Origin: a virus
Lineage: Duplodnaviria; Caudoviricetes
IMG/VR virus record: IMGVR_UViG_3300043595_000031
Coordinates: 1 to 62,175 of that record
DNA length: 62,175 bases
Reading direction: 5' to 3' (one strand)
Numbering within the stretch: the stretch's first letter is position 1; every line of letters starts with the position of its first letter. The notes under the pieces were generated by a model that did no database searches, was not told the DNA's origin, and worked only from the letters and a program-made list of their open reading frames with translations. Shown here piece by piece: positions 8,566 through 53,656 of this stretch. A program made the position numbers and the translations under genes.

Positions 8566-9188
8566 AGACCTGGTCACACGAGATCGGCGTGGTGATGCCG
8601 ACGCACCCGTCACGCACAGCGAAGTTCATGACCCAGCGGGCGGTGCAGTCCGCGCTGGACCAGCAGTTCCCTGCGAGTGGGATCTCCGTGTATAATGACG
8701 TGGATCACCGCGGCGCACCGTACGCGCGACAGCGAGCGCTCGAGGCGAACACGTGTGAGTGGACCGCGTTTCTCGACAGTGATGACTACTTCTTACCGCA
8801 CCACCTCCGCACGCTCGTCAACGCGCAGCTGGAGTCGGGAGCCGACTACGTCTACTCGTGGTACATCCTCGAGCGACTCGGTGTGCGACTCGGCGACGTC
8901 GATCCGGTGTTTCCACCGGGTCACCGCTGGGATCCGTGGAACCCGGATGCCCCACGGCAGACGACCATTACGATGCTCGTTCGCACGGAGTTGGCGAAGA
9001 GCATTGGCTTCTGGGCGCCGTCCGACGAGGAGGAGTTTGAGGACGGACACCGCGTGGGAGAGGACTACAACTTCACCCTCGAGTGCAACCGGCTCGGCAA
9101 GATCTACCACATCCCGGACCAGACGTGGGTTTGGGCGCATCACGGCGCGAACACGTCGGGTCGCGGGAACCAGGGAGATGCGGGATGA
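8562..9188 (+). CDS. Glycosyltransferase, GT2
   Basis: VVMPT, GAPYARQ, AFLDSDD and GEDY motifs; ATGA-coupled start. Confidence 0.88.
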   Translation: MKTWSHEIGVVMPTHPSRTAKFMTQRAVQSALDQQFPASGISVYNDVDHRGAPYARQRALEANTCEWTAFLDSDDYFLPHHLRTLVNAQLESGADYVYSWYILERLGVRLGDVDPVFPPGHRWDPWNPDAPRQTTITMLVRTELAKSIGFWAPSDEEEFEDGHRVGEDYNFTLECNRLGKIYHIPDQTWVWAHHGANTSGRGNQGDAG

Positions 9189-10285
9189 AGGTCGTCGTGT
9201 ACCCGTCAGACCTCGGCGGCTGCGGGTACTATCGTCTCATCTGGCCGGCGAAGGTCCTGCAGAAGATGGGGCACGACGTCACCATCGTTCACCCGAAGAA
9301 CGTGAACAAGATCTCGGGTAACACGGACGAGACGGGTAAGCTCGTCGGTGTGAACATTCCAAAGGGCGCCGACGTGATGGTCTTCCAGCGCGTTACGTCC
9401 AAGAACATCATCGACGCGATCGGCATCATGCGCGACAACGGCATCGCCGTCGTCCTCGACGTGGATGACGACATGTCGACGATTCACCCGTCCAACCCCG
9501 CGTGGGCAGCACTACATCCTAAGAACGAGGCCACTCTGGAGTACAGTTGGAATCACGCGGCGAAGTCCTACGATCTCGCATCTCATGTGACTGTGTCATC
9601 CACCGCGCTCTTAAAGAAGTACGCGAGTCACGGCCGCGGAACAATTCTACACAACTTCGTACCGCAGATCATGACGGAGATTCCGCACATCGAACAGGTG
9701 AACACGATCGGGTGGGGTGGTTCCATGCACTCCCACCCGGATGACCCACAGGTCGTAGGTAACGCGATGGCTCGGATCGTACGTGAAGGCTATCGCTTTC
9801 AGATCGTCGGCCCGCCGTGGGGTACGAAGCGCGCATTCGGACTTGATGATGAACCGCTGTCCACGGGACCCGTGCCGATCGAGAACTACTGCCACACGCT
9901 GGGACGACTCGCCGTGGGTGTCGCGCCGCTGAATGACACGAAGTTCAACGCAGCGAAGTCGTGGCTCAAGATGCTCGAGTACGCGGCGGTCGGTGTTCCG
10001 TGCATTGGCTCACCGCGACCCGAGTATGTGCGACTCAATAAGATGGGCATCGGTCTCCTCGCGCAGACACCGCGTGACTGGTATCGCAATGCACGGCGAC
10101 TCCTCGATGACTTCAACTACCGGATGGACATGTCCCAGCGGGGGCGAGACATCGTACGTGAGCACTTGACCATCGAGGCCAACGCGCACAAGTGGTGGGA
10201 AGCGTGGTCTGCGGCCCTGGCGATCGAGCGTGGCCCGCTGGGCCAACGGAGCATCCAGTCGGCCGTTGGTACCGTATCGGACTGA
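9185..10285 (+). CDS. Glycosyltransferase, GT-B fold (GT4-like)
   Basis: GCGYYRL, DVDDD, APLNDTKFNAAKSWLKMLEYAAVGVP motifs. Confidence 0.88.
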   Translation: MKVVVYPSDLGGCGYYRLIWPAKVLQKMGHDVTIVHPKNVNKISGNTDETGKLVGVNIPKGADVMVFQRVTSKNIIDAIGIMRDNGIAVVLDVDDDMSTIHPSNPAWAALHPKNEATLEYSWNHAAKSYDLASHVTVSSTALLKKYASHGRGTILHNFVPQIMTEIPHIEQVNTIGWGGSMHSHPDDPQVVGNAMARIVREGYRFQIVGPPWGTKRAFGLDDEPLSTGPVPIENYCHTLGRLAVGVAPLNDTKFNAAKSWLKMLEYAAVGVPCIGSPRPEYVRLNKMGIGLLAQTPRDWYRNARRLLDDFNYRMDMSQRGRDIVREHLTIEANAHKWWEAWSAALAIERGPLGQRSIQSAVGTVSD

Positions 10286-17683: not shown

Positions 17684-18160
17684 CTATACCGCCCGTGATC
17701 CGAGGTACGCACCGCAGACGCAGTGTATGTCCACCCGCTGGGTGGATTGTGCGAAGACTTCCTTCGCGTCCATGTCGTCCAGTGCGCGCTGGCAGTTGAG
17801 GCACTTCGTCGCGACACCGTCGTAGCCGTTCTCCTGGCGTTCGATGTTCGTCGCCAGCTTCGTCACGTACTTCTCGTAGAGCTCGTCGGAGTCGACGCCC
17901 ATGTGAAGGAGGAGGTTCATGAAGAAGTGCCAGGCGTCGATGAGCTCCTTCACCGCTGCGTCGCGGTTGATGTGGCGTGAGGTTGCCCACTCCTTCCAGC
18001 CCATCTCGTTGATGGCCTCGTACAGTTCGGCGATCAGTGCGAACATCGAGATCTTGAAGTTCGTGATGCGCTGCTCTTCCGTCTGCTCTTCGAGTGTGTA
18101 GCCATTGAGCTTCTCTTGGAACGAACGCTGCATCTCAAGCATACTCGCAAGCCGGTCCAT
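17684..18160 (-). CDS. Dimeric all-alpha dUTPase/dCTPase (MazG superfamily) with C-terminal Cys motifs
   Basis: ELYEAINE..WKEW..KELIDAWHF..NIERQENGY. Confidence 0.85.
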   Translation of the reverse strand: MDRLASMLEMQRSFQEKLNGYTLEEQTEEQRITNFKISMFALIAELYEAINEMGWKEWATSRHINRDAAVKELIDAWHFFMNLLLHMGVDSDELYEKYVTKLATNIERQENGYDGVATKCLNCQRALDDMDAKEVFAQSTQRVDIHCVCGAYLGSRAV

Positions 18161-19020
18161 TAGTGTCCCTTCAGTGCGCGTGCGATGCCTTCTTCGAGCG
18201 TGATCTTCGGTGTGTAGTGCATGTGCAGTCGGTCCGTGTTACCCACGCGGTAGAACACACCCAGCGGTGCGTCGCGGTCCACGTCCAGATCGGGCTCATA
18301 CCCGGCCGAGTTGGTGATCATCCGAGCCAGCTCTCCCATCGACGTGGGACGGCCTGTGCACAGGTTCACGGGCTTCTGCATTCCGTCCGCGATGAGCTTC
18401 ACGATGGCGTCGCAGATGTCGTCGATGTGGATGAAGTCGCGAACCTGCTCCGCGCTGCCCCAGATCTTGAACGGATCATCGCGGCGGCGTGCGCGCTCAA
18501 TGAACGCGCGGAACGGGAAGTCCTCCGACTGGTCCGTGCCGTACCCGGAGAACGGTCGCACGATGGTACCGTCGAGTCCGTTCGCAATCGCCGTCATCAT
18601 GAGGCGCTCACCGACGAGCTTCGTGAACCCGTACGTGTCGGCGGGTTCGTCGACGGAGTCTGTGTCTCTCTCTTGAAGTTTCGTCGGCACCTCCTGCATC
18701 CACGCCGGGTAGACGGCCGATGACGAGAGGTACACGAAGTGCCGCTGCCGCGTGCGCGCTGCCCACTCAATCATCGACGCATCGAGCTTGACGTTGTACG
18801 CGAAGTGTTCCGGCTGGGTGTCGATTGCGCGGCGGTTTGGTCCGGCGGCCGCCGCGTGGATGACGAGATCAAACTCGCGGCCGGTCTCACGCACGTAGTG
18901 CATCGCGTCGAGACCGTGTTGCGCGTCGATGCCCGTGACGTCCCAGCCGTCATCGGCGAGACGACTGAGCATGTGACGACCGACGAAGCCGGCGTGCCCC
19001 GTGATCAGTGCCTTTTTCAC
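18160..19020 (-). CDS. NAD-dependent NDP-sugar epimerase/dehydratase (extended SDR)
   Basis: GHAGFVG, SSSAVY, YGFTK, RDFIHIDD. Confidence 0.93.
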   Translation of the reverse strand: MKKALITGHAGFVGRHMLSRLADDGWDVTGIDAQHGLDAMHYVRETGREFDLVIHAAAAGPNRRAIDTQPEHFAYNVKLDASMIEWAARTRQRHFVYLSSSAVYPAWMQEVPTKLQERDTDSVDEPADTYGFTKLVGERLMMTAIANGLDGTIVRPFSGYGTDQSEDFPFRAFIERARRRDDPFKIWGSAEQVRDFIHIDDICDAIVKLIADGMQKPVNLCTGRPTSMGELARMITNSAGYEPDLDVDRDAPLGVFYRVGNTDRLHMHYTPKITLEEGIARALKGH

Positions 19021-20024
19021 AGTGTCTTCCAATCTGCGACCCACGCCTTGGCGAACGCCGTGGTGTCACGGGGTAGGATGTCGCCGGTGGCGTAGACGAG
19101 TTCGTCCCACGCGTGCCACAGTGGCATGCTGGCGGAGATGTGTGCGTTCTGCAGCGCGGTGATGAAGTCGAACGTGTGGTGCATTCCCCACAGCTCTGCG
19201 CGTAGATCGTTCACGAGGTTGTGTTCGTTGCGATCCTGTCGCACGACCGGTTCACCGACGAAGAGCCCGACATTGTGCTCACGCGCGATGCGGTGGAAGA
19301 GGAACGACGCGAAGATGTCGTCGAACCGGCCGATGCCCGGTAGGCAGACCATGAGTGGCGCCCACTTGATGTCCCACATCGTCGCCTGCGTGTTGAACGC
19401 CGCGTACACACCGGGACGAATCACCGCGTTCGTTCGCACTGCCTTCACGTCGGGAGCGTGCGCCATGCGCTCAATGGCGTCGCAGTCTGGGTCGCCGAGC
19501 ACTTGGGCCTGCGCCACGACGACGCGGCAACCCTCGTTCGCGCGAACGATGATGGGTGTCGTAGCGACACCGTACGGCACACCACGCTGGTGGAACATGG
19601 GTGAGCACAGCGCACCCGTGTTGAGAAACGGCGACTTGGACGAGATGAACGTGAGCTGCTCGGGGAACGCTGCGAAGTTGCGCAGGTGTCCGTCGATGAA
19701 CTCCGTGACGTTGGGTAGTGGAAAGTTATCGTCGTCGACGGTGATGACGTAGTCGTACTGCTTCCGGCGAAGCACCTCCATGATGGCGGCACTGCGCCGC
19801 TGAATCTTGTTCCAGCCCAGGAGTTCCGACCAGGCGAACTCGGCGGACTGGTACTCGGGCGAGAGGTAGATGCCGTCGACGTCCGTGAGGTAGTCACGGA
19901 GCATGAGTGGTGTCTTGCGATCACCGGCAACGATGAGGTCTACGCGGTCGTCGGACGACCACGCCTCGTACGCGGACGGAGCCGCGTTGATGCTGGTGCT
20001 CACCACGGCGATGTTACGCGTCAC
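19017..20024 (-). CDS. GT75 / RGP (UDP-arabinopyranose mutase)-STELLO-like protein
   Basis: VAGDRKTP, TVDDDN, RGVPY, GDPDCDAIER, FNTQAT, GRFDDIF. Confidence 0.7.
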   Translation of the reverse strand: MTRNIAVVSTSINAAPSAYEAWSSDDRVDLIVAGDRKTPLMLRDYLTDVDGIYLSPEYQSAEFAWSELLGWNKIQRRSAAIMEVLRRKQYDYVITVDDDNFPLPNVTEFIDGHLRNFAAFPEQLTFISSKSPFLNTGALCSPMFHQRGVPYGVATTPIIVRANEGCRVVVAQAQVLGDPDCDAIERMAHAPDVKAVRTNAVIRPGVYAAFNTQATMWDIKWAPLMVCLPGIGRFDDIFASFLFHRIAREHNVGLFVGEPVVRQDRNEHNLVNDLRAELWGMHHTFDFITALQNAHISASMPLWHAWDELVYATGDILPRDTTAFAKAWVADWKTL

Positions 20025-28691: not shown

Positions 28692-29236
28692 AGTCCGCAG
28701 CTCATCATGAAGTCCATCGCCCTCTGCGGACTGCGGTGTGAGTCGTCGATCGCGGGCCTCGCGTAGAAGACCTTGAGCAGTCCGCTGTTCGCGATCAACT
28801 TAGCGCAGCCGAAGCACACCGTGGAGGAGACGTAGATGCTACCACGTACCCGCTGGGCGCGATCACCGAACATTAGCGCGTTCGCCTCGGCGTGGAGCGA
28901 CGGGCAGTCGGAGTAGTCCGCTGCGAGCGTACGCCCGGTGAGAACTTCCACCGCTCTTCCCTGAATCTCACGCTCGAACGTCGTCTGCGTTCGCCCACGC
29001 TCGCACCACCACTCGCAGGTGGGACGGTTAATGTCCGCGCCACCGCCGCAGTTCGCGGGTGAGAACCCAGCGGGTGGCCCGTTGTACCCCGTGTCGACGA
29101 TCCGGTTCTCGGCAGAGACGATCACGGCTCCGACCTGGTCACGGGCGCACAGCGACCGGCGACCAACCGCCTTCGCCGTGTCCATCCACAACTGGTCCCA
29201 GGTAGGACGCGAAGACCTTGCGATACTGTCGTTCAC
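28673..29236 (-). CDS. dCMP deaminase
   Basis: RPTWD, RSLC, VGAVIV, TGYNG, HAEANA, CFGC. Confidence 0.92.
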   Translation of the reverse strand: MNDSIARSSRPTWDQLWMDTAKAVGRRSLCARDQVGAVIVSAENRIVDTGYNGPPAGFSPANCGGGADINRPTCEWWCERGRTQTTFEREIQGRAVEVLTGRTLAADYSDCPSLHAEANALMFGDRAQRVRGSIYVSSTVCFGCAKLIANSGLLKVFYARPAIDDSHRSPQRAMDFMMSCGLWVTEL

Positions 29237-30035
29237 TGCTCGTCTCCTCCACGTTCTCTGCGTTCGTTGTGAGCACGCGTGCGCGCTTCATCATGGTGGT
29301 AAAGCTGTCGCTCGGTCGGCCGATACCCGAGAAGACGAGCTCGTCGAGCTTCGGCTCGCGGAGCGGTCGGAAGTCGCAGTCCAAAGCCTTCGACACATCC
29401 TCGACGTAGATGTGCATGGACATCGTGACGTGGCGGTAGCGCCCGGGCTCGAGTCCGAGTGCGCGGGCGACGGTGCACTGGAGCTGGGTGAACTGGAACA
29501 GGTCGTACGGTAGTCCCAGCCAGACGTCGTTGCTCCGCATGACGACGGTCATACACAGGAGGTCGCGCCGGTTGATCTCAAAGTGGAGCATCACCGTGCA
29601 CGGGTAGTCCTTCTTGTCCTCGAGGTTATCGAGCACGGGATCCCAGAGGGTGACGATGGCCTGCCGCGTCTCCGAATCCTCCTTGAGCTTGCGTACGACG
29701 CTCGCTACCTGGTACCGCACGCGGCTGCCGTACGAGCCGTGGAAGTGACCGTCGGGTTCCAGAAAGTCGTTGAACTTTACCGCGGCCTTCGTCAGGAGGT
29801 CCGTGTTGGTGAACCCACCGATCAGCTGAACGGCCTCGGCCACCGCGATGCGCATGGTCAGGCCGGGACGAAGACCCAGCGGGAACGCGTAGTACGGTGT
29901 CTCCAGCTCAATGACCGTGAATCCTAGATCCCGTGTCTTGCGTCCGCGCGGTTCACGCGGAACACCCTGCACGATTACGCTGTGGACAACGTCGCCGTAG
30001 ACGTCCTGGCCGTGGAGGGCTTCGAAGGTCGCCAC
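29139..30035 (-). CDS. Thymidylate synthase homolog, probable dCMP hydroxymethylase or other dCMP C5-modifying enzyme
   Basis: TRQA, DYPC, MRSNDVWLGLPYD (Asp at the base-specificity site), SMHIY; GTG start at 30035. Confidence 0.8.
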   Translation of the reverse strand: MATFEALHGQDVYGDVVHSVIVQGVPREPRGRKTRDLGFTVIELETPYYAFPLGLRPGLTMRIAVAEAVQLIGGFTNTDLLTKAAVKFNDFLEPDGHFHGSYGSRVRYQVASVVRKLKEDSETRQAIVTLWDPVLDNLEDKKDYPCTVMLHFEINRRDLLCMTVVMRSNDVWLGLPYDLFQFTQLQCTVARALGLEPGRYRHVTMSMHIYVEDVSKALDCDFRPLREPKLDELVFSGIGRPSDSFTTMMKRARVLTTNAENVEETSSERQYRKVFASYLGPVVDGHGEGGWSPVAVRP

Positions 30036-30961
30036 TTGAGTTCGTTCCTCTCGGTTCCGCTTACGCTCCTGATGAGTTGACCGTACTCGGCGACCGCATG
30101 GTTGTGGAAGCGCCGAACGTACTGGGGGTGCGGCACCGCGGCGTGAGGCACGCCACACTCCGTGAGTCGCTCGGAGGCCTTCACACCGAGTGCGACGGTC
30201 GTGGGTCGTCCGAGGTCGACCCACAGTGCGTCGGAGAGGTCCACGTCGCAGGCGTTCGCCACCGCGACCCCGTCCGGTAGCGGATCCAGTGCGCGGAAGA
30301 GGAACTCCCCCGACGTCGCCGGATAAGGCATGAACGCGGGGCCCGCTACGTCGTGTGGCGTCTTGTGCTTACACGTCTGCCCGTCGCACGCGCGAACGTC
30401 GCCCATGAGGAGCACGTTGGGCCTGGGGGATCCGATCCACGTCGTGTACGTCTTTCGGAGATACTCGACGGATGCCTCACGGAGTGAGGCAGTGCTCATC
30501 ACCATGTTCGGCGGCTGAATCGTCTTTGTGCGTAGGAAGCATTGGATTCCGCGGAATCCGTGAGCGGCCTCGAGAAGCTGTCCCGCATTGACGAAGTCGT
30601 CGCCTCGTTCGATGAAGCGACACATGAGGATCTCATCGGTTTGATCGAGCACAAGCGTGGTGGCGCCGCGCGACTGCAGGAAGAGCTCAATGTAGTCGAG
30701 GACTCCCGGCGTCATGCGCGTCGACCGTCCCATGACGGTCGGGTACACGGCCTCGCCCACGTGCCAGCGATCGCAGAGCACGACGTCGTGCGGACCGAAG
30801 CAGAGAAGCGGTACGACGTACGCGTCGAGCGGATGGATCTTGCCGGGTGGTCCTGCTTGAAACCAGTGGTACGGCTGGCGGGAGCTCACGAAGTTCGCGG
30901 AGATATTCTCGGCGAGTGTCGACTTGCCGACGCAGTCGGGTCCCTCTAAGATGATAAGCAC
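29975..30961 (-). CDS. dNMP kinase fused to a uracil-DNA-glycosylase-superfamily domain
   Basis: EGPDCVGKST and CDRWH kinase motifs; C-terminal LLMGD..AF..SGEFL..VALG..HP. Confidence 0.75.
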   Translation of the reverse strand: MLIILEGPDCVGKSTLAENISANFVSSRQPYHWFQAGPPGKIHPLDAYVVPLLCFGPHDVVLCDRWHVGEAVYPTVMGRSTRMTPGVLDYIELFLQSRGATTLVLDQTDEILMCRFIERGDDFVNAGQLLEAAHGFRGIQCFLRTKTIQPPNMVMSTASLREASVEYLRKTYTTWIGSPRPNVLLMGDVRACDGQTCKHKTPHDVAGPAFMPYPATSGEFLFRALDPLPDGVAVANACDVDLSDALWVDLGRPTTVALGVKASERLTECGVPHAAVPHPQYVRRFHNHAVAEYGQLIRSVSGTERNELKWRPSKPSTARTSTATLSTA

Positions 30962-31028: not shown

Positions 31029-31664
31029 TTAGACCGAGTGTAGCAGACGCGGGCTTTCGGACAGGTTGCGTGCGACGTGATCGACGGGCATGACGTGGGT
31101 AGTTACGTTGAACGTCATGCCCGTACAGATAACGAGTGCCTTCTCGGACATGCGAGACAACGTAGGTACGAGATCCCAGGCGTTTCCGGACGTCGCTAAT
31201 GTGGGCCAGTTCTGTGTGTCGTACTCTGCCCAGCGGTTCCGCCACTCGGTGCGCTGTGACACCTCTTCGTAGCGGCGCCTGCCGTGGTATGTTCGCTTTC
31301 GTTCGTTCGTCCATGACTCTTCCCACCACTCGGTGAACTCGTTCGACAGTGTGGGTGACATCGCCCAGCGGGCGACGTCGTCGACGTACTTACGCACAAC
31401 GCTAGTGATCATCGTAAGCGCGGACACAGTGAGGAAGACGAGTGCGTTCATCTCCCAGTCGATGTCTGCGCGAATGCGGTGTGACGCGCGGCGCGAGCGA
31501 ACGCGACCGTGTTCAGCGAGTGTGATGAGGCGTGCCGGTAGCCGGTATGACAGCAGCGGCGGCCACGAGCGCGATCGCAGTAGCGTGTCCTGCTCGGCCA
31601 GAACGTTCGCGGCGACGCAGATCGCGATGAACACGACACCGATCGTAAAACCCATAAAGATCAT
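31029..31664 (-). CDS. Hypothetical membrane protein
   Basis: Two hydrophobic segments; ATGA-coupled. Confidence 0.55.
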   Translation of the reverse strand: MIFMGFTIGVVFIAICVAANVLAEQDTLLRSRSWPPLLSYRLPARLITLAEHGRVRSRRASHRIRADIDWEMNALVFLTVSALTMITSVVRKYVDDVARWAMSPTLSNEFTEWWEESWTNERKRTYHGRRRYEEVSQRTEWRNRWAEYDTQNWPTLATSGNAWDLVPTLSRMSEKALVICTGMTFNVTTHVMPVDHVARNLSESPRLLHSV

Positions 31665-32086
31665 GACGACTCCACGGTGTGTGACTTCTTGGCCGCCAGG
31701 ATAGTGGGTGCCTCACGGTACGCCTCGAGGCAGTCATCGTCCCACTGGGCGGCCTGCGCGAGTGCGCGAGTCGACTGCTGAGGAAGGTAGATCTTGTCGT
31801 GGTGGTTGACGATGAGAGCGTCGACGATCTCGAAGGCAGATCGCGTTCGCAGGATGCGAGTGTACGTGGTCTCATCCACAACGCTGGTCATACCGCGCGT
31901 GTGGACGAAGTACTCGCCGTCGTCCTGGCGGTAGATGTCCACCTCGAACCAGCGTAGCTTGCCCGCGCGGTGAGACGAACCGTGTCCGAGGCGCCGCGCA
32001 ACGATTACCAGCGTCTCATCACGGCCGTATAACACGTATGTGGAAAGCGCGGGACCGGTGGTCGCCGCGTTGACTGTTCCTGACAT
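31661..32086 (-). CDS. Hypothetical protein
   Basis: ATG at 32086 with AAGGAG/AGGAG RBS and upstream TATAGT. Confidence 0.65.
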   Translation of the reverse strand: MSGTVNAATTGPALSTYVLYGRDETLVIVARRLGHGSSHRAGKLRWFEVDIYRQDDGEYFVHTRGMTSVVDETTYTRILRTRSAFEIVDALIVNHHDKIYLPQQSTRALAQAAQWDDDCLEAYREAPTILAAKKSHTVESS

Positions 32087-32127
32087 CTCCTGACTCCTTC
32101 GTTCGGTTCGCTCAGTTCTACTATACG

Positions 32128-32163
32128 GACGGACCACTCCGCTGTGTTGCGGAGTGGTCCGTC
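32128..32163. terminator. Strong hairpin closing the RNA-gene cluster
   Basis: GACGGACCACTCCGC/GCGGAGTGGTCCGTC 15-bp stem. Confidence 0.7.
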
Positions 32164-32224
32164 TGCCGCGTATCTTCCCGGTGTCGTCTCTTGCCCGAAG
32201 GCTCACCGTCCCAGTTCACGCGTC

Positions 32225-32298
32225 GCCCGGCAGGACCGTCTTGAACGGCCGTCCTCCCGCAGTCAAGCGGGCGCTCTGTCCCCTGAGCTACTGTCGGA
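32225..32298 (-). tRNA. tRNA-like RNA with 6-nt anticodon loop (TTGACT; pseudo-Val?)
   Basis: Acceptor CCGACAG/CTGCCGG (1 mismatch), D arm GCTC/GAGC, anticodon stem CCCGC/GCGGG, T arm GGCCG-TTCAAGA-CGGTC. Confidence 0.65.
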
Positions 32299-32396
32299 GT
32301 CCGCGGGTAGCCAACCAATGACCACGTGCCTTTCGAGCCGCGCATCTCGCAGACCAGTCTCGTTTCCCCCGGTGGCTAACCGGATCTCGAGACTCG

Positions 32397-32472
32397 AAGC
32401 GGGAGCCGGATTCGAACCGGCGACCTTCGGCTTATAAGGCCGACGAGCACAACCGAGCTGCTCCATCCCGCC
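32397..32472 (-). tRNA. tRNA with TAT (UAU) anticodon, nominally Ile, on an initiator-Met-like body; no encoded CCA
   Basis: GGCGGGA/TCCCGCT acceptor, GAGC/GCTC D stem, TCGGC-CTTATAA-GCCGA, GCCGG-TTCGAAT-CCGGC. Confidence 0.85.
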
Positions 32473-32476
32473 GAGC

Positions 32477-32641
32477 GGCCGAGATCGCAACAACCTGGGG
32501 CGGTAGGAGCGATCCCGGCCTGGCCTCGCGTAACCACGAACGGGGGTTGTCGTAGGTGGTGCGACCCGAACGCGAGGCAAGTAAGCAGTGGGCGGTCGAC
32601 CCCGACCCGTGTCTTCCCCTTCCGAGGTCGACCTCCCACTG
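32477..32641 (-). ncRNA. Three consecutive stem-closed RNA modules upstream of the tRNA
   Basis: Stems at 32477-32520, 32523-32578 and 32586-32641; two contain G-U pairs on the minus strand that are A-C mismatches on the plus strand. Confidence 0.5.
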
Positions 32642-32746
32642 GCTCAACCGTATCAGGATGCCATCTCGCGGTGTCGCAGATGATGATCTCCGAGCTGGTA
32701 GTGTTGAAGTAGCAACCATAAGTTCACGAAAGACCGAGGAGGACCC

Positions 32747-33721
32747 GTGTCACGGTCGTGGAAGTACTTCGTACTTAAGCCCGACAAGACGCCCTTTCCC
32801 AACTGCGCGGAGTGTGCCGTCGCCGACGCGACACACAGTCGCGAGGACTGCACCTGCCTCACGTGCCACGGCTTCTACGCCGCGACGGACAATCCTACGA
32901 TCATGCGAGCAATGGTCGACAGGTACCCGGACTCCCGCTGGGCGGTGCGCACGGGACTCGCGTCGGGCATCATCGTCATGGACGCAGAGGGTGGGCTGCA
33001 GTCGCAGGGAGTCACGGGGATCCAGGTTCTGGACGACTTTGAGAACTGGACGGGTGGCCTGGCACTACCGACGACCGGGCTGATCGCGTCAACACCCAGC
33101 GGGGGTGTCCACCGCTATTACCGCTACGTTCCGGGCGTGAAGAGCAAGAACCGGATCCTGCCGGGCGTCGACATTAAGTCGGACGGCGGGTACGTTCTCG
33201 TTCCGATGCAGAGTGAGACCGTTCGCGCCGGTGAGCACAACGTCACGCTCGACCGCGACCGTGAGTGGTTCCTGGACGGTGAGGTCGGGGACCTGTCCGA
33301 GGCCGTAGTAGACTGGTTGACCCAGCGGCGGGGGATGCCTGGCGGAGGCTCGGTGGGCAGCGCCGGTGGCGGCGACCACACAGACGGCTACGACTTTGAG
33401 AAGTTCGCGCACAACGGCTGCCCGGGCGGTGTCCGCGATGAGTTCTTCAATGAGCTCATCTTTCGCTACCGGAAGGCGGGACTGGAGCGCGGTGAGGTCA
33501 CGGTGAAGGTGCGGGACCACTGGAAGCGCGCCGCCCAGCCGCCGAACGCGGAGTACTACATGCCGTTTCACCACGTCGAGTACAAGATCGAGCGGATCTG
33601 GCGAACGGTGGAACCCGACCGCGTTCCGGAGGGTCTTCGCGAGTGGGCGGAGCGCATGACCGCCGGCGGTGAGAAGATCACGGGACGTCGCGTCACACTG
33701 GTCGCTCGGGGTGAGGAGTGA
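32747..33721 (+). CDS. Bifunctional DNA primase/polymerase (Prim-Pol)
   Basis: HGFYAAT, AVRTG, VMDAE, TPSGGVHRYY, GVDIKSDGGYV. Confidence 0.9.
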   Translation: MSRSWKYFVLKPDKTPFPNCAECAVADATHSREDCTCLTCHGFYAATDNPTIMRAMVDRYPDSRWAVRTGLASGIIVMDAEGGLQSQGVTGIQVLDDFENWTGGLALPTTGLIASTPSGGVHRYYRYVPGVKSKNRILPGVDIKSDGGYVLVPMQSETVRAGEHNVTLDRDREWFLDGEVGDLSEAVVDWLTQRRGMPGGGSVGSAGGGDHTDGYDFEKFAHNGCPGGVRDEFFNELIFRYRKAGLERGEVTVKVRDHWKRAAQPPNAEYYMPFHHVEYKIERIWRTVEPDRVPEGLREWAERMTAGGEKITGRRVTLVARGEE

Positions 33722-39627: not shown

Positions 39628-39957
39628 ATGAGGAAGTTCGTCTGCGAGCTGGGTGGGTACGAGGTTCTCCTGCGAGGCAACGCGAGTGACGCGCGCCGCG
39701 CCGCGGTTGCCCGGCTCGCCGAACACGGTCCGGTTACGATGCACGACGACTCCCTGCAGCGCGCCGTGGATCGTCTCGCAGACTGGTGGCGAACGGGAGT
39801 GCTGTGGTGGGGGCCGGGTGTTGGCCGCGAGGCGATCGTCGACTGGTTCACGCGCAAGCGCTACGAGATCGATGTGGGTGGTGTGCCCACAGTGGTTCCG
39901 CTCTACGCCGCCGAACTCTGGCGCGCACGGGAACGAATGAAGAGGAGTGCAGAGTGA
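39628..39957 (+). CDS. Hypothetical protein, leaderless
   Basis: TAGAAT 6 nt before ATG; coupled to thyX. Confidence 0.6.
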
Positions 39958-40703
39958 AGGTCGTACTGATTGCATCGACAGTGGTGGACTGGGAGAAGAT
40001 CGACGACACTCCCTGGGTGGCGTACGAGAACGACGGCGAGCACTTTCACGACTGGGTCTACGACGCCGACGACCTCGCCGAGTTCGCGGGTCGCGCGTGC
40101 TACGAGTCGTGGAACCGACCCAACCCAGCGACGAACACGAACGCGACGTACCTCGAGCACATCCTCGAGGTCGGGCACGAGTCCGTCCTGGAGCACGCCT
40201 CCGCGTCGTTCTACGTCACCGGGGTCTCACGGAGCCTGCTGGCCGAGCTAACCCGGCACCGGCACCTCTCGTTCTCCGTACGCTCCCAGCGGTTCGTGGA
40301 CGAGTCAAATCCGATCGTCGTTACTCCGCCGGCGATCGTCGAAGATTTCAAGGCGCGTGGCAACACGACGCAACTTCTGCTCGACGCGGCAACGGATCGC
40401 GCCATTGGAACGTACCGTGAGCTCGTAGGGCGTCTCACAGCGGCAGGACTAGCGCGCAAGCAGGCCCGCGAGGCCGCACGCTCCGTTCTCCCGCAGGCGA
40501 CGGAGACGCGATTCGTCGTGACGGGCAACATGCGGGCGTGGCGCGAGGTCATTAAGAAGCGTCTCCACCCGCAGGCCGACGCGGAGATCCGGGAGCTCGC
40601 CGCGGAGATCCTGCGGCAGCTCGCCGGGCTGGCGCCCAGCACCTTCCAGGACTTCGACTGCGAGGAGAGAGTCCCAACGGCACCTGAGCACCACCCCATA
40701 TAA
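39954..40703 (+). CDS. thyX: Flavin-dependent thymidylate synthase
   Basis: [40 protein letters not shown]. Confidence 0.96.
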
Positions 40704-47801: not shown

Positions 47802-50800
47802 ATGGCCAGAATCCAAGGGTACACCGAGGATGACCTGGACGTCTTGATCGCCGACTTTGAAGGCGTCGTCGAGGAGTCACTTCGCAGCGTCGCGCGGGGT
47901 GTGGCGGACAACCTCCGGCCCGCTGTCACCGCCGCATCGTCCGCGGGCCTCGGTCCGGCCGACGTGATGATCGCGCAGCAGCTGTGGCAAGAGGAGGTCG
48001 ACGGCGTCATCACACCGTACGTTGGTGAGGTGTACACGGGCAGCGCGGTGCAAGTCGCCATCGGACTCGGTGACTCGTTCCCAGACGGTGCGCTACCCGG
48101 CATCCCACTGGTCGCCGACGAGTTTGCCGTCACGTACATGAAGACGGTGACGAACCGCCTCAGCGGTGTGGGCAATGAGGTCTGGGAGGACATTCGCAAC
48201 GAGCTCCTCGACGGCATTCACGACGGTCTCTCTGTGGAGCAGATCGCGGACCGCATCGCGAACCTGGCGAACTTCGAGGAGACGCGCGCACACCGGATCG
48301 CACGCACCGAGATTCACGCGGCGAGTGAGTCCGGGTCACTGGCGCAGATGCTCTTCATGGGCTATGATCAGGGCACGGTCACGAAGGAGTGGATCTCCAC
48401 CCGTGACGGCCGGACGCGTGAGACGCACAAGTTTGCGAACGGGCAGCAGGTCGGCCTCGACGAGATGTTCCTCGTTGGGCTGTCGCACCTCCAGTTTCCG
48501 GGTGATCCGTCGGGGGCGCCCGGTGAGACGATCAACTGCCGCTGCACCACGACGTTCGAGGTCGACGAGCCGCCGAAGTTCCGCTGCGGTGACGGCTACG
48601 GAAATCTCGTAGCGGCGACGACCGGCGTCTCATCGCACTGCGTCGTACCCACGCCGCAGGCGAACATCTCACACATCGCCGAGGCACTCCGTGAGGCTCT
48701 GTTCACGGCGTTCATGCTGCACAAGATCTCGCCGGCCTTCGGCGGAGCGAAGATTCACAAGGTGCTCGCGGACGTCCGCGACACAGTGGGCGAGGGGCAG
48801 CTCACCGGGATCGACGACTTTCAGATTCTGCAGGTTGTGGATCACAAGTACACGGGCGCGGCGAAGGGCTCGTACCTCGGTAAGTACACGGAGTGGCTCC
48901 AGACACCCGCTGGGAAGAAGGCGTCCGGCGGCGTGACGGTCCCCAAGCCGGCGACGCACGTCGTCGCTCCGACGAACATCGACGTGAACCTTCCTCCGAC
49001 GACCCAGCCGGGACCGGCGGTCGGGTTCGCGCCACTGCCGCCCGTGCCGTCGCAGCCCGCACTGTCTGACCTTACGTTCACGGGCAAGGTGTTCGCCACG
49101 GCCAGTAAGGCCGAGGTGTGGGTCGACTCGAGTGGACGGAAGTGGCTCTTTAAGCCGATCAAGGGACAGTCGTACTCTTCGAAGTTCCTTGTCGAGATCG
49201 ACATCGCGACGTCACGCCTCGCTTCGAAGGCGCTCATGCAGCGGCCGGGCGTCTATGAGGTCACGCTAGGTGGGAAGCACGGCACACTGCAGTCGATGTT
49301 CGACAGCGTGGATGCGTTCCCGGGTGGGAGCTTTGACCCGCTTAAGTTGAGCGCCGAGGACCTCCTCGTGATGCAGCGTGAGCAGATCTTCGACTGGCTC
49401 ATCTCCAACCACGACACGCACAGTGGGCAGTGGGTGCGCACGAGCACCGGTCAGCTCGTCGGGATCGACAAGGGTCAGTCGTACAAGTTCTTCGGTCACG
49501 ATAAGCTCGACTGGGCGTACACGCCGGTCACACCGCTAGGCGGCGACAAGCTTACGTACTCGTCGATGTGGAAGGCGTTCGTCGCGGGCAAGAACATCGA
49601 CTTGCACGATCCGACCCAAGGCCCGCTGGGTGACTACATGCTTCAGCTTATGTCGATCCCGGACGATGAGTTCAAGGCTCTCTTGCGGCCGTACTTCGAG
49701 TCTCGCGTCGCGCAGGGTATGGGCACCGACGTGGAGAAGTTCCTCGACATGGCGGTGAAGCGTAAGAACAACCTGAAGAAGGACTTCTCGGCGTTCTACG
49801 CGAAGGCAGTGAAGGCGCGGCAGCAGTCCGGTGGTGTACCCTCACCCACACCCGCGGTGAAGGTCGCCGCGAAGAAGGCTGAGCCGTTTCCAATCTCGTA
49901 CATACCCGCGAAGCCCGCGACACCACTGCCAGTGTCGATTCCCACGCCCGCAGTTGTCGGCGTTGACTTGGGTGACATCTCGGGTGTGAGTCTCTCAACG
50001 AAGCAGTTCATCGCACTCAAGTGGGTGGATCTCGGAGGTGGTAAGAAGGTCACGCCGGGGTGGGGCGGTTCAAAGATCTGGAAGCTCCTCACGGAGCTCG
50101 AGGCCGACACGTCCATTCCGGACGTCGCGGGTCTCAATCATCTGCAGCTGCTTCGCATCCTCGATGAGATGGGTGGGTTTAAGGGTAAGCCCAAGACGTA
50201 CGAGTCCGTTCTCATCGAGTGGCTCGAATCGCCCGCCGGAATGAAAGTCGTCAAGCCGGGATCCGTCACCTCACTTAAGAAGACTGTACCCGCTGCGAAG
50301 GCTGCGCCCACACCCACACCGTCGGCGAAGTCCCCGTCGGCGATTCAAGGCAAGTTCGCCGGTGACGAAGTCACACCCGGTGAGCTTTCATACTGGTACA
50401 TGAACGAGACGACACCCAACTCTGTGGGTGCAACGTGGACGTTCAGTGGTGATCAGTACCGCGTCATCCTGAAGATGGACTCAACTGGCTTCACGAAGGC
50501 GTACATTGAGCGGTTTAACGCCGTGACGGGTGAGTGGTTCGACGTTAAGTCGGTCTACAACCTCACAGAACTGTACCAGTATGAGCTCAAGGCCGCCGCG
50601 AAAGATCTCGTCACACCCACGCCTGTGACACCCGTCGTACCCGTGAGTAACGCAGTGAAGACTGTGAATGATCTGCCGTCCGGCTCGGTTATCACGACCG
50701 AAGACATTCACATGAGTTCATTCGGAAGCATCTGGGAAGAGGACGACGTCTTCGCAGTTGGCACGTCGACTGCAGCCGGCGTCGAGTATCGCATCATTGC

Positions 50801-52997
50801 CAAGCCAAGCACGCCGAATAAGTATGTCATCCAGTACAAGACGGCTATGACCCACTGGAATAACACCGCGTCGGCACTCGACGATGCGTGGGTGAAGGCC
50901 GCGACGTGGAAGGTTCCGGGAACTTCCGGCATCTCACCACCCGCCGCTAAGATGATGCCGACGAAGGTGTACGGAAAGGGACCCGACGACTCGGTAACAC
51001 CCGCCGAGCTTGGACTTAATGCGCATCTCTTCGAAGACGGCGACATCATGGCGACCGCCGTGGATCCGTTCACGAAGGCCCAGTGGCGAGTGCTCTACGA
51101 CGGAAAGGGCGGTGGTGGGTATAAGTTTGAGATCAAGACGACGGGCGGCGACTGGACACCGACCACCGCGATGACCGCACCCGTTGAGCACTACGACTGG
51201 AAGCTCACGGGTGACGTCCTCATCAATAAGACGAAGTCGAAGTTGCCCGGTAAGAACGTGGGTGACAAGCTTACGGGCAAAGATGTCTGGGATCTCGCAT
51301 GGGGAAACGTAAGTCAGGGCGACGTCATCGCCTACGCGTGGGATGACACGACGGGTACGATGTACCGGCTTCTGCTCGATTTTGACGGTGACATGAAGAT
51401 GGGCACACTCGCGCCGTCCGGTAAGTGGAATCCCGCGTCCATCGTGTACGCCGAAGATGACATCGCAAACATGGACTGGTACGTAGCGCACCCGACGAAG
51501 CTTGAGATTCCCGATCCGCTCAAGGTGTATGCGCAGACGCCGGTGACCGCACCGCCATTCACACCGAAGTCTCCACTCGCTTCACCTAAGAAGGCGAAGG
51601 CCGCAGCGAAGAAGGCCGCGGCCACGCAGGCTGCGCTTAAGCCACCGCTGTCCGGCACGGCGACGCACATTCCCGGTAAGAGCGTCGGAGATCCGCTGGC
51701 TAAAGACGAGATCATGAAGCACGCGTCGAAGTACGCGGACGGTGAGGTCGTCGCGCAGTACACGACGAAGGGTTGGAATAAGGAGTCGTTCCGACTCGTC
51801 TGGACGGACGACGGACTCGTCAAGCAGAAGCAGCTCTCCAGCGGTGCGTGGAAGTCCGAGGACGTCATCGGACAGGGTGAGGACTGGAAGCTTTACGGCC
51901 AGTGGGAGGCGGCAAACGGTCTCGCGACGAAGCCGCAGATCACAGCGATGAAGAAGTTCATTACGAAGAAGACGGGTGGGTACGTGCCGCCCGCGAAGAA
52001 GGCAGCGTACACACCACACGTTGCTCCCACTCCGTCCGCGACGTATCCGACGCTCACACAGGGTCAGCTCGCGCACGTCGATCTCACGCTATGGGACGGA
52101 ACTGAGCAGGCGGAGATCGTCGACTACCTGGCGGGTCTCAACCCATCATCGACACCGGAGATCGTGTGGGGGAAGCTTCAGCAGGCCAAGTCACACTTCG
52201 CTGCGAAGTACAAGGGTAAGTATCTCGGACTGAATGAACTCGAGATCTTGCGCATGCTCGATGCGGCGAACGCGCTCAAGGGCGGGAAGACCGATCTTCA
52301 CATTCTTGAGGCGAAGATCGTTAACTGGCTGCAGACAGCGAACGGAAAGTTCTTTACGAGTCGTCGCATCGACGCACCCATTATGTCGCCGGACGTTCCC
52401 GTGCCCGTGTCGGCGTACGCCGACTACGGTCCACCCGACTCGCAGCAGTATGACGTCATCTCGACGTCGCAGGCGCTCGCGTACCGCGCGGAGTCACACG
52501 CGAAGTACGGTGACTGGAAGCCAGGCGAGAAGGAAGCGACGAAGGTCTACACGGGTGGCTCGTACACCGCGTGGAACGACGCCATTCGCAAGGGTGATCT
52601 CAAGTCGTACAAGTCGAAGATCTACGCGACACAGCGAGGTATGCGCCCGTCGACGCGCCCCATCCTGCTTCACCGTGGCACGAGTTTTCTCGAGTTCAAT
52701 GATCCCAGCATTACGAGCTACGAGTCGCTGCTTCCGTACGTTGGCCGCACGTACGTTAACCGTGGCTTCAACTCCACATCAGTCGGCGGCAACCCGGCCT
52801 TCGGTGGACAGCTCCTCATTGAGTACGAGGCACCCGCCGGGACGCCTATGTCGTACGTGGATGACTTCTCACATCACAAGGGAGAGCGTGAGATGTTGCT
52901 TCCCACACACATGACATACGAGATCATTAGTGTCACTAAGAAGAGTAGCACGACAACCGTCATGCGAGTACGAGTGCTAGGACCGGCGACACCATGA
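47802..52997 (+). CDS. MuF minor head protein fused to a kinase-like domain, internal repeats and an ADP-ribosyltransferase
   Basis: MuF: RIARTE, KEW..DGRTRETH, INCRC; kinase: WLFKP, NHDTH, GIDKG; ART: LHRG, FNSTS, ERE. Confidence 0.88.
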   Translation: MARIQGYTEDDLDVLIADFEGVVEESLRSVARGVADNLRPAVTAASSAGLGPADVMIAQQLWQEEVDGVITPYVGEVYTGSAVQVAIGLGDSFPDGALPGIPLVADEFAVTYMKTVTNRLSGVGNEVWEDIRNELLDGIHDGLSVEQIADRIANLANFEETRAHRIARTEIHAASESGSLAQMLFMGYDQGTVTKEWISTRDGRTRETHKFANGQQVGLDEMFLVGLSHLQFPGDPSGAPGETINCRCTTTFEVDEPPKFRCGDGYGNLVAATTGVSSHCVVPTPQANISHIAEALREALFTAFMLHKISPAFGGAKIHKVLADVRDTVGEGQLTGIDDFQILQVVDHKYTGAAKGSYLGKYTEWLQTPAGKKASGGVTVPKPATHVVAPTNIDVNLPPTTQPGPAVGFAPLPPVPSQPALSDLTFTGKVFATASKAEVWVDSSGRKWLFKPIKGQSYSSKFLVEIDIATSRLASKALMQRPGVYEVTLGGKHGTLQSMFDSVDAFPGGSFDPLKLSAEDLLVMQREQIFDWLISNHDTHSGQWVRTSTGQLVGIDKGQSYKFFGHDKLDWAYTPVTPLGGDKLTYSSMWKAFVAGKNIDLHDPTQGPLGDYMLQLMSIPDDEFKALLRPYFESRVAQGMGTDVEKFLDMAVKRKNNLKKDFSAFYAKAVKARQQSGGVPSPTPAVKVAAKKAEPFPISYIPAKPATPLPVSIPTPAVVGVDLGDISGVSLSTKQFIALKWVDLGGGKKVTPGWGGSKIWKLLTELEADTSIPDVAGLNHLQLLRILDEMGGFKGKPKTYESVLIEWLESPAGMKVVKPGSVTSLKKTVPAAKAAPTPTPSAKSPSAIQGKFAGDEVTPGELSYWYMNETTPNSVGATWTFSGDQYRVILKMDSTGFTKAYIERFNAVTGEWFDVKSVYNLTELYQYELKAAAKDLVTPTPVTPVVPVSNAVKTVNDLPSGSVITTEDIHMSSFGSIWEEDDVFAVGTSTAAGVEYRIIAKPSTPNKYVIQYKTAMTHWNNTASALDDAWVKAATWKVPGTSGISPPAAKMMPTKVYGKGPDDSVTPAELGLNAHLFEDGDIMATAVDPFTKAQWRVLYDGKGGGGYKFEIKTTGGDWTPTTAMTAPVEHYDWKLTGDVLINKTKSKLPGKNVGDKLTGKDVWDLAWGNVSQGDVIAYAWDDTTGTMYRLLLDFDGDMKMGTLAPSGKWNPASIVYAEDDIANMDWYVAHPTKLEIPDPLKVYAQTPVTAPPFTPKSPLASPKKAKAAAKKAAATQAALKPPLSGTATHIPGKSVGDPLAKDEIMKHASKYADGEVVAQYTTKGWNKESFRLVWTDDGLVKQKQLSSGAWKSEDVIGQGEDWKLYGQWEAANGLATKPQITAMKKFITKKTGGYVPPAKKAAYTPHVAPTPSATYPTLTQGQLAHVDLTLWDGTEQAEIVDYLAGLNPSSTPEIVWGKLQQAKSHFAAKYKGKYLGLNELEILRMLDAANALKGGKTDLHILEAKIVNWLQTANGKFFTSRRIDAPIMSPDVPVPVSAYADYGPPDSQQYDVISTSQALAYRAESHAKYGDWKPGEKEATKVYTGGSYTAWNDAIRKGDLKSYKSKIYATQRGMRPSTRPILLHRGTSFLEFNDPSITSYESLLPYVGRTYVNRGFNSTSVGGNPAFGGQLLIEYEAPAGTPMSYVDDFSHHKGEREMLLPTHMTYEIISVTKKSSTTTVMRVRVLGPATP

Positions 52998-53656
52998 CAC
53001 AGAGTTTCTTTCCGACGATGCCCGAGCTGGGTGCGATGGAGTTCCTACCACCAGTCACGGTGGGTTGGACGTATGATGAGGCATATGCACTCCTCACGGG
53101 TAAGATGCCGTACATCGACGTGATCATCGCTGCGGCCGACGTGCAGACGGGTGCGATGATCGCGTTCATTCCAGCGTCGGACGACCTCGCGGAGCTCGTC
53201 CTCGACGGTGAGGACACAGAGCCGCTCGAGGAACTTCACTGCACGGCGATCTACCTCGGTGACGCCGACGAGTACGACGATGAGATGCGGCAGATGATTT
53301 ACACGGCCGTCGCGGCGTACGCCGCGAGCCAGCCGAGCATCCGCGGAGACCTCTTCGCATACTCTGTGTTCAACCCCGAGACGGAGGACTCGTGTCTCGT
53401 GGCGGACGTGGGTGGTGTCGACCTCGAGGATGCGCAGGCGGCGATGCTCGAGCTGTGTGATGATCTCGAGCTGGGCATCCCGAATCAGCACGTTCCGTGG
53501 CGACCACACATCACACTCGCATACACCGAGGATCCACGCACTCTCATGACCGACGAGCTTATGACGAAGACGGGTCCCATGATCTTCGATCGCGTGCGAG
53601 TCGCATTCGCGAGTGTCGTCACGGACTACCCGCTGGGTGAGCCACTCCCGGCGTAG
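52994..53656 (+). CDS. 2H phosphoesterase (LigT/Acb1-like)
   Basis: Two HxT motifs: LHCTAIYLG and PHITLAY. Confidence 0.85.
   Translation: MTQSFFPTMPELGAMEFLPPVTVGWTYDEAYALLTGKMPYIDVIIAAADVQTGAMIAFIPASDDLAELVLDGEDTEPLEELHCTAIYLGDADEYDDEMRQMIYTAVAAYAASQPSIRGDLFAYSVFNPETEDSCLVADVGGVDLEDAQAAMLELCDDLELGIPNQHVPWRPHITLAYTEDPRTLMTDELMTKTGPMIFDRVRVAFASVVTDYPLGEPLPA

Follow-up and report, generated by a model that had tools for sequence, protein, structure and literature searches.

Setting and distribution of the array

The DNA considered here is the complete virus record IMGVR_UViG_3300043595_000031 (Duplodnaviria; Caudoviricetes), a linear sequence of 62,175 bp with a completeness estimate of 86% and a G+C content of 59-66%; this whole stretch is called the window below. 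Between two of its gene blocks, which diverge, lies a gap of 660 nt (32087-32746) occupied by an array of structured elements, among them two cloverleaves and several modules closed by stems (M1, M2, M3, M5 and M6). We propose that the array is a non-coding operon whose transcript would be cut at the cloverleaves into small RNAs.

The genes of the window include a WhiB-type regulator, a tape-measure gene, MuF-like head genes, a family A DNA polymerase, an SNF2 helicase, ThyX and dUTPase, and the lineage has been sighted in soil metagenome runs. No near relative was found in the phage isolate collection, where the helicase protein reached at best about 29% identity (mycobacteriophages) and the nucleotide search returned only generic tRNA matches. 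Given this gene content and these nearest isolates, the source is, as far as its genes tell, an uncultured actinophage-like lineage from soil.

To the right of the gap, on the plus strand, lie a prim-pol gene (PF09250; GTG at 32747) and a D5-type helicase gene (PF08706). To the left begins a minus-strand replication block of about 20 kb, whose first gene encodes a 141-aa protein (ATG 32086) and which also holds a thymidylate-synthase-like gene, a DNA polymerase, an SNF2 helicase, a PD-(D/E)XK nuclease and others. A GC3-based gene call placed no gene in 32207-32746, in agreement with the preliminary description, which saw no credible open reading frame (ORF) across the array. The 181-aa ORF at 31661-32206 as listed enters the terminal hairpin, and its likely start is ATG 32086, which has a GGAG-type ribosome site. 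The elements of the region are given below from right to left, with z-scores for the folding of single modules against 200 shuffles each.

32696-32704, plus strand: extended -10-like element TGGTAGTGT for the divergent prim-pol gene, recognised by inspection and conservation
32647-32655, minus strand: extended -10-like element TGATACGGT, with its hexamer TACGGT at 32652-32647; proposed promoter of the array
32586-32641, minus strand: M1, a hairpin of about 20 bp whose stem is interrupted (7 bp, 1x1 mismatch, 12 bp) and whose loop is purine-rich; z -5.96
32523-32578, minus strand: M2, a conserved closing stem of 8-9 bp; the interior that it encloses differs in sequence and length and has a C-run in every case; z -2.73
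32477-32520, minus strand: M3, a 12-bp stem, an internal loop, a 3-bp stem and a conserved C-rich loop of 6 nt; z -5.42
32396-32472, minus strand: initiator-type tRNA with anticodon UAU (ARAGORN tRNA-Ile(TAT); Rfam RF00005)
32356-32394, minus strand: M5, a 7-bp outer stem, a conserved asymmetric internal loop, a 5-bp inner stem and a YAGCC loop; z -2.26
32298-32355, minus strand: M6, a 5-7-bp closing stem that ends 1-2 nt before the tRNA-like RNA; newly delimited here
32225-32297, minus strand: tRNA-like RNA, a full cloverleaf of 73 nt with a 5-bp anticodon stem and a six-membered loop, CCA not encoded (ARAGORN 'tRNA-???')
32164-32224, minus strand: variable spacer (CGCGT/ACGCG with a UUCG hairpin); z -1.08, not supported as a conserved structure
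32128-32163, minus strand: terminal hairpin of a perfect 15 bp with a 6-nt loop; z -9.15
32120-32125, minus strand: -10-like TATAGT, 33 nt before ATG 32086; likely a separate promoter of the replication operon

Queries of IMG/VR with the flanking proteins (the small protein and the prim-pol) gave no close relatives (none for P0001, only 23-50% for P0002). Relatives were instead found through the helicase: three at 53-58% identity in IMG/VR, whose alignment led to 64 metagenomic loci. A sensitive blastn search of the 660-nt gap against all 76 related loci matched the array in two, L054 (86.9% identity over 534 nt, the array being cut by the contig end) and L015 (67.1% over 736 nt, with the full array in the same place), and matched the tRNA alone in a third, L035. 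Exact-pattern scans of viral and genome contigs for the tRNA, the D arm of the tRNA-like RNA and the M5...M6 pattern returned 0 matches. Logan contigs of the probable source sample show 0 differences from the window across 31700-33000 and are not independent evidence. On this distribution, the array belongs to a single sub-lineage, in which it has been inserted between two divergent promoters.

Conservation and folding of the array

Third codon positions supplied a neutral benchmark for the comparison of the window with L015, at 64% identity in the prim-pol gene and 65% in the helicase gene. Set against it, the terminal hairpin is 97% identical, the tRNA-like RNA 89%, M3 82% and M5 80%, while M1 (68%, its loop insertion counted), the tRNA (68%) and M6 (53%) are lower, and the promoter stretch (60%), the interior of M2 (40%) and the 32164-32224 spacer (28%) complete the series. 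M3, M5 and the tRNA-like RNA thus lie well above the neutral level; M6, for its part, keeps 15 invariant nucleotides.

The preliminary description had staked its reading on covariation of the stems, and pairs changed on both sides were found in M5 and M6 together (8 of 25), in the tRNA (5), in the tRNA-like RNA (2 of 21) and in M3 (1 of 15). As the three sequences behind these counts represent two lineages, with a pair of them 87% alike, each compensated pair is one event and the shuffle counts given below are not probabilities. The existence of the elements, their conservation, their covariation and their arrangement are matters of observation.

As a whole, the 660 nt fold with z -4.98 on the minus strand and z -4.95 on the plus strand (20 shuffles each). 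Because both strands fold equally well, fold energy alone can neither choose the strand nor prove an RNA; the G.U pairs and both cloverleaves indicate the minus strand. Spacers between modules measure 1-7 nt, as few as had been described earlier, and the closing stems stand 1-4 nt from the two cloverleaves.

An Rfam scan, which the preliminary description had called for, was run on the array at the gathering threshold and on a 1-kb region at E up to 10. It recovered the tRNA and, beyond noise-level microRNA and plastid matches, nothing else, and no family was assigned to any module. Tandem Repeats Finder gave 0 rows for the region and there were 0 families of direct repeats; the array was therefore rejected as a repeat-array RNA antitoxin (type III, ToxI-like), in which tandem direct repeats of one unit lie beside a toxin gene. 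Judged by comparison of the sequences, the array is real, conserved, RNA-like and non-coding, and its modules are new RNA families arranged in a known manner.

The stem-closed modules

The three stem-closed modules first recognised at the head of the array are all present at the positions proposed. M1 folds at -37.0 kcal/mol, with 0 of 200 shuffles as good; the fold is the same in L054 and L015 (with a loop insertion there), its stems are almost invariant with little covariation, and its G.U pairs favour the minus strand in two of the three sequences. M3 is comparably stable (-28.6 kcal/mol, 0/200 shuffles as good), and all cells of its 15 pairs are paired (100%, against 22-47% in slid controls), with one pair changed on both sides and two on one side by G.U transitions.

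Folding of M2 is weaker, as 2 of 200 shuffles do as well. Its closing stem is 78-100% identical among the three sequences and its interior 40-46%, and the ninth closing pair reads U-A, C-G and U.G in turn; M2 may serve as a conserved clamp that holds a changeable insert. In L015 the M2 interior (within 3815-3868, minus strand) contains a G/C hairpin of 5 bp with a 3-nt loop, which, we presume, recalls the stem of some CRISPR repeats.

M5 matches the module earlier described by its AGTCTCG/CGAGACT and CCGGT/ACCGG stems. Its fold, too, is weaker than those of M1 and M3 (3/200 shuffles as good); three of the seven pairs of its outer stem have changed on both sides, and the inner stem and the loops are invariant or nearly so. 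M6, in turn, closes in independent folds of all three sequences. In its closing stem four of five pairs have changed on both sides and one on one side, with 100% paired, and its inner hairpin adds one more change on both sides. When the structure of M5 and M6 was written from the three independent folds and the pairs were then counted, 97.3% of 75 cells paired; 0 of 500 shuffles reached the eight compensated pairs, and slid controls gave 0-3.

In M3 and M5 the loops and internal loops, and in M6 a run of 15 nt (32304-32318), stay invariant whereas the stems around them change. This M6 stretch includes the complement of the M5 loop, and the TAGCC loop (32374-32378) and downstream GGCTA, whose match had been pointed out before, both exist. 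The AGCC/GGCU pairing that they would form is invariant in 3/3 sequences, and is neither supported nor refuted by them. Within the phage, complementary targets of the M3 loop and the M6 15-mer do not exceed chance.

One proposed module did not hold. The CGCGT/ACGCG-closed element with a UUCG hairpin (32164-32224) is in the sequence as described, but 29 of 200 shuffles fold as well, identity to the relatives is 27-28%, and their counterparts give z 0.14 and 0.44; it was dropped as a conserved module. The relatives are longer by 40-50 nt at this spacer. L015 (3405-3516, minus strand) and L054 (1-102, minus strand) share a segment of about 30 nt, between the tRNA-like RNA and the terminal hairpin, that is missing in the window, and in L015 this segment holds a TTGACA-like hexamer.

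These patterns also bear on a reading at the level of DNA, in which the palindromes are operators of phage regulators, a replication origin or both, and the tRNA gene merely lies among them. The position of the array in a divergent control region beside the prim-pol and D5-type helicase genes suits such a reading, as does the conservation of M1 and the 15-bp hairpin in sequence, free of compensatory change; the hairpin and the -35 of the next promoter overlap, and a small inverted repeat occupies the corresponding place in L013, a more distant relative. M2, M3, M5 and M6, however, vary by compensatory or G.U-compatible changes, which are the signature of an RNA and not of a DNA site for a protein. 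Neither the M1 core octamer (5 matches in the genome against 4.0 expected) nor the half-site of the terminal hairpin (10 against 6.5) is enriched, and relatives exchange the whole stretch for something else. Palindromes acting as DNA are accordingly very improbable as the explanation of the array.

The initiator-type tRNA

The element at 32396-32472 had been described as a tRNA with anticodon UAU. A tRNA carrying TAT is indeed present, with a score of 61.8 bits against RF00005 (gathering threshold 29) and a loop, CUUAUAA, of 7 nt; ARAGORN's assignment of it to isoleucine was not borne out. Compared with the tRNA(CAU) classes of E. coli K-12, it is identical at 61 of 75 positions to the initiator metY, at 39 of 75 to metT and at 41 of 74 to ileX. 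ARAGORN, run over 21 of the new loci, reported a tRNA(CAT) at the homologous place in L054, L015, L016 and L035; the anticodon is CAU in 4/4, and these homologues are 69-80% identical to metY and 53-61% to metT and ileX.

Initiator tRNAs are defined by the lack of a Watson-Crick pair at 1:72. This position is a G.U wobble in the window and a mismatch in the relatives (C/A in L054, C/U in L015, U/U in L016 and A/A in L035). The five changes on both sides of tRNA stem pairs arise among three sequences. The anticodon TAT of the window is also found in the contigs of the probable source sample. AUA codons number 19 of 15,580 in 43 called genes, and on their rarity, together with 41/74 identity to ileX against 61/75 to the initiator, an isoleucine tRNA that supplements codon usage was rejected. 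By these comparisons, 32396-32472 is an initiator-type tRNA and not an ordinary isoleucine tRNA.

ARAGORN further reported a 97-nt 'tRNA-His(ATG)' in L014 (2707-2803, minus strand) and in L020 (1486-1582, minus strand). A search with R1, the model built from the tRNA-like RNA described below, gave a 118-nt match of 28.6 bits in L033 (11162-11279, plus strand). These calls may be tRNAs with insertions or false positives.

The tRNA-like RNA

The tRNA-like RNA noticed earlier was recovered by ARAGORN as a cloverleaf at 32225-32297 and is present in all three homologues. The program assigns a two-base anticodon, that is, a cloverleaf with a 6-nt loop, in the window, L054 and L015 alike. With 99% identity to L054 and 89% to L015, it is among the most conserved elements of the array. 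The four stems, U8, the GG of the D loop and a T loop of UUCAAGA (UUCRANN type) are kept in 3/3 sequences, as is an A.C mismatch at 4:69, and 20 of the 21 pairs form in all three. The anticodon loop has six nucleotides, not the seven of a tRNA loop, and is held in every case between invariant 5-bp G/C stems; its positions 2, 4 and 5 are fixed as U, A and C, and the remaining ones vary. Because stems, U8, GG, the A.C mismatch and the six-membered loop are kept in all three genomes, the element is maintained in a non-canonical state and is not decaying.

The Rfam tRNA model scores the L054 copy at 42.7 bits (gathering threshold 29) with one loop position deleted. The window copy, one loop base off that of L054, was unreported by cmscan over 32205-32345 at E up to 10, which is probably a filter artefact; the L015 copy was unreported at the gathering threshold. 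Over 443 kb of DNA from related phages the R1 model found no additional copy, and it scores initiator tRNAs at 29-39 bits. A phrase search of the literature for a six-nucleotide or six-membered anticodon loop gave no match, and the feature may still have been described.

A loop of six nucleotides should abolish normal decoding. Since loop positions 2, 4 and 5 are U, A and C, the anticodons can be read as valine-type (GAC, GAC and CAC), and the RNA could be imagined to be charged and used for non-triplet decoding, to which we give next to no credence.

More weight belongs to a plain small tRNA operon of the phage, in which only the initiator-type tRNA would function, the tRNA-like RNA would be its decaying duplicate, and the hairpins would do nothing beyond protecting the precursor against exonucleases, guiding its processing and terminating transcription. 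The tRNA is the sole element shared with the distant loci L016 and L035. L016 carries other hairpins round the same tRNA, so that one hairpin seems as good as another; the M2 interior and the spacer are free to drift, no module has an Rfam family, and the R1 scores on initiator tRNAs are compatible with an origin by duplication. A decaying pseudogene, however, would not be expected at 89% identity where neutral sites stand at 64-65% and the real tRNA at 68%, nor would it keep a 6-nt loop, an A.C mismatch and compensated stems in all three sequences. Padding, likewise, does not predict invariant loops in M3 and M5 and 15 fixed nucleotides in M6 beside stems that change. A tRNA operon of this simple kind is therefore unlikely, if still to be taken seriously.

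Transcription signals and the limits of the unit

The -10-like element that the preliminary description placed before the array is present as TGATACGGT at 32655-32647, and the form TG-n-TACG[GA]T is kept in 3/3 arrays. It stands back to back with TGGTAGTGT, whose complement block is invariant in the window, L054 and L015. From TGATACGGT, transcription would be expected to start at about 32641-32639, the foot of M1.

At the other end, the 15-bp hairpin earlier proposed as terminal folds at -32.4 kcal/mol with 0 of 200 shuffles as good, and 37 of its 38 nt are identical in L015, with zero changes in the stem. It is the probable end of the array transcript. It may in addition be a palindrome that a protein binds, lying over the -35 region of the next promoter: where neutral sites have diverged by 35%, a hairpin left unchanged suggests a further reader of its sequence, such as a repressor at the -35. 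Other GC-rich hairpins of 13-20 bp occur in the window, several between called ORFs and several inside the minus-strand block.

In the window, L015, L016 and L013 alike, a TAnnnT hexamer precedes the first protein gene by 33-41 nt. As L013 is without the array, the hexamer is there a candidate promoter of the downstream gene. Because it precedes that gene even in an array-less relative, the array can be regarded as its own transcription unit.

An alternative would make the array a cis-acting leader of the replication operon. M1-M3, as the first part transcribed, would govern read-through at the 15-bp hairpin, either by modifying RNA polymerase or by folding co-transcriptionally (antitermination or attenuation), and the downstream genes would depend on the upstream promoter. 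HK022 put is a precedent for antitermination or attenuation mediated by RNA. The hairpins begin at the expected transcript start, a strong and invariant hairpin stands between the array and the replication block, and further strong hairpins lie inside that block, as such a leader would have it. The -10-like hexamer between hairpin and gene, however, is spaced as in array-less relatives, so the gene is probably self-promoted; two cloverleaves that are to be cut out stay unexplained, and no similarity to a leader or antiterminator appears in Rfam. We consider a leader of this kind improbable.

Proposed processing and its weighing

The best explanation, to which we assign a probability of roughly 60%, is a non-coding operon of about 525 nt that has a promoter and a terminator of its own and would be cut at its cloverleaves into stem-closed small RNAs. 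Host RNA polymerase would start at TG-n-TACGGT, the transcript would open with the M1 hairpin, and transcription would stop at the 15-bp hairpin. The transcript would carry two cloverleaves, the initiator-type tRNA and the tRNA-shaped RNA with the six-membered loop, both of which have a 7-bp acceptor stem and a 5-bp T stem. Host RNase P would cleave 5' of each cloverleaf and 3'-end enzymes would trim, leaving, besides the tRNA and the tRNA-like RNA, three products whose ends are locked by helices, namely M1-M3 of about 165 nt, M5-M6 of about 98 nt, and the variable trailer with the terminator hairpin. With modules 1-7 nt apart and 1-4 nt from the cloverleaves, the layout is what would be expected of a substrate for tRNA-processing enzymes.

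In the relatives, the tRNA would, at an early stage of infection, provide initiator tRNA that is additional or insensitive to nucleases. The tRNA-like RNA, M3, M5 and M6 would act in trans as protein- or RNA-binding small RNAs, a role argued from their conserved loops and from the maintenance of the six-loop cloverleaf. Transcription, cut sites and function in trans are what we infer from these arrangements.

Several observations weigh against this explanation. The array is known from DNA sequence alone, and folding of the plus strand matches that of the minus strand, both overall and for M2 and M3 individually. For covariation there is in essence a single deep comparison; as M1, the terminal hairpin and the putative pairing of the M5 loop with M6 do not vary, they yield no such signal and might just as well be sites in DNA or for proteins. 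A simple sigma-70 consensus scan reported no promoter at TGATACGGT or TGGTAGTGT and no terminator in the array, and the terminal hairpin, GC-rich as it is, has no U-tract. The tRNA of the window departs from its four relatives by U34 for C, U73 for A, the G.U at 1:72 and a D loop longer by 2 nt, changes that could mean decay or relaxed selection, or else a changed identity. Among more distant relatives, L016 keeps the tRNA and hairpins and has neither the array modules nor the tRNA-like RNA, and in L013 and L014 the same gap holds an ORF of 59-64 aa with a short promoter region and no array. As one relative is without the modules and others carry a small ORF instead, the array is young, and the lineage can dispense with it.

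Comparison with known systems

Phage T4 offers one of the closest known arrangements. Its RNAC and RNAD (species 1 and 2) are structured RNAs other than tRNAs that lie among phage tRNA genes and mature alongside the tRNAs. The array shares with them the presence of structured non-tRNA RNAs beside phage tRNA genes. T4 has eight tRNAs and two such RNAs, whereas the array combines a single tRNA and a single non-canonical cloverleaf with four or five modules closed by stems. According to a passage of PMC9697503, the function of RNAC and RNAD is still unknown. Unlike the T4 cluster, the array belongs to an actinophage and lies at a divergent early control region, and homology is not expected.

Phage P4 CI and P1/P7 C4 RNAs are cut from the untranslated leader of their operon and pair with complementary sites in their own transcript. 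The M5 loop and its complement in M6 form a formal parallel, the 4-6-nt complementarity being invariant and putative. Unlike these RNAs, the array modules have no Rfam match and no complementary sites above chance elsewhere in the phage. A passage of PMC5499578 states that bacterial RNase P cuts any stack of acceptor and T arm and that it matures P4 CI and P1/P7 C4 RNAs. The substrates in question are described there as hairpin-like and without a T loop (PMC5499578), whereas the handles of the array would be true cloverleaves.

The actinobacterial 6C small RNA has stem-loops with C-rich loops. C-rich loops also occur in M2 and M3 in all three sequences, a resemblance of loop composition only, for the architecture differs and the Rfam scan of the 1-kb region at E up to 10 gave no match.

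Y RNAs (YrlA, Yrn1) are non-coding RNAs that copy the D and T arms of a tRNA, as does the tRNA-like RNA, and D. radiodurans Yrn1 is modelled in a passage of PMC4201824 with a 5-bp stem and a 6-nt 'anticodon loop'. Y RNAs, however, lie next to Ro60 and have a Ro-binding helix, whereas the tRNA-like RNA forms an entire cloverleaf that its own 5' and 3' ends close. A scan of 52 of the 67 window ORFs turned up no TROVE/Ro60 domain, nor was there an Rfam Y RNA match, and membership in the Y RNAs was rejected on these grounds.

Phage tRNA genes are being reinterpreted as weapons against host defences that cleave tRNAs. According to PMC10264068, initiator tRNA is a known target of VapC-type toxins, and a decoy against tRNA-directed defence fits the current ideas set out there (PMC10264068). 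The array resembles phage tRNAs that escape nucleases in having a phage-borne tRNA gene, an unusual anticodon loop and a predicted early expression. Such tRNAs keep a 7-nt loop and decode, whereas the tRNA-like RNA would have to be a decoy and not a replacement.

The preliminary description had suggested decoys against host defence. In a specific form of this suggestion, the tRNA-like RNA, perhaps together with M5-M6, would be supplied by the RNase P-processed array within minutes of the onset of infection and would bind and neutralise a tRNA-directed defence or toxin of the host, for instance an anticodon nuclease or a nuclease of VapC type that attacks initiator tRNA, while the initiator-type tRNA would refill the pool. 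We regard this as speculative and rather doubtful. Literature searches found no description of a counter-defence decoy RNA of the tRNA-like type.

Other genes and related loci

Elsewhere in the window, the plus-strand gene at 47802-52997 encodes a 1731-aa protein that joins a Mu F-like head morphogenesis domain (PF04233) to a C-terminal ADP-ribosyltransferase (PF03496). Overlapping its stop codon, 52994-53656 (plus strand) encodes a 2H phosphoesterase or LigT-like 'RNA ligase' (PF13563; PHROG RNA ligase families). The pair may be a toxin carried in the virion with its antidote, or it may serve an RNA repair relevant to tRNA conflicts.

The phage carries a ThyA-type thymidylate-synthase-like gene (29139-30224, minus strand), ThyX (39786-40703, plus strand) and a dUTPase (17684-18160, minus strand), and the window also has a glycosyltransferase (9083-10285), a methyltransferase (7404-8027) and an NAD-dependent epimerase (18160-19044). 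These genes of nucleotide and sugar enzymes hint at modified nucleotides or sugar chemistry.

The small ORF that replaces the array, followed by a hairpin, lies at 4640-4846 (plus strand) in L013 and at 4620-4814 (plus strand) in L014, and belongs to no Pfam or PHROG family. The label of ribbon-helix-helix repressor was dropped for it, as Pfam and PHROG gave no support; it may be a regulator displaced by the array. L014 (IMG/VR) and L021 are apparently one and the same contig of 39,108 bp.

Significance

Alongside an initiator-type tRNA and a tRNA look-alike held in a non-canonical form by selection, at least three new structured RNA motifs, M3, M5 and M6, with covariation or conserved loops, emerge from this locus, which provides a compact comparative handle, in actinophages, on the non-tRNA RNAs of phage tRNA clusters. 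If the tRNA-like RNA is a decoy, it would represent a new mode of RNA-based counter-defence. If it is not, the locus would still define new RNA families and a clear case of tRNA-punctuated production of small RNAs in a phage.

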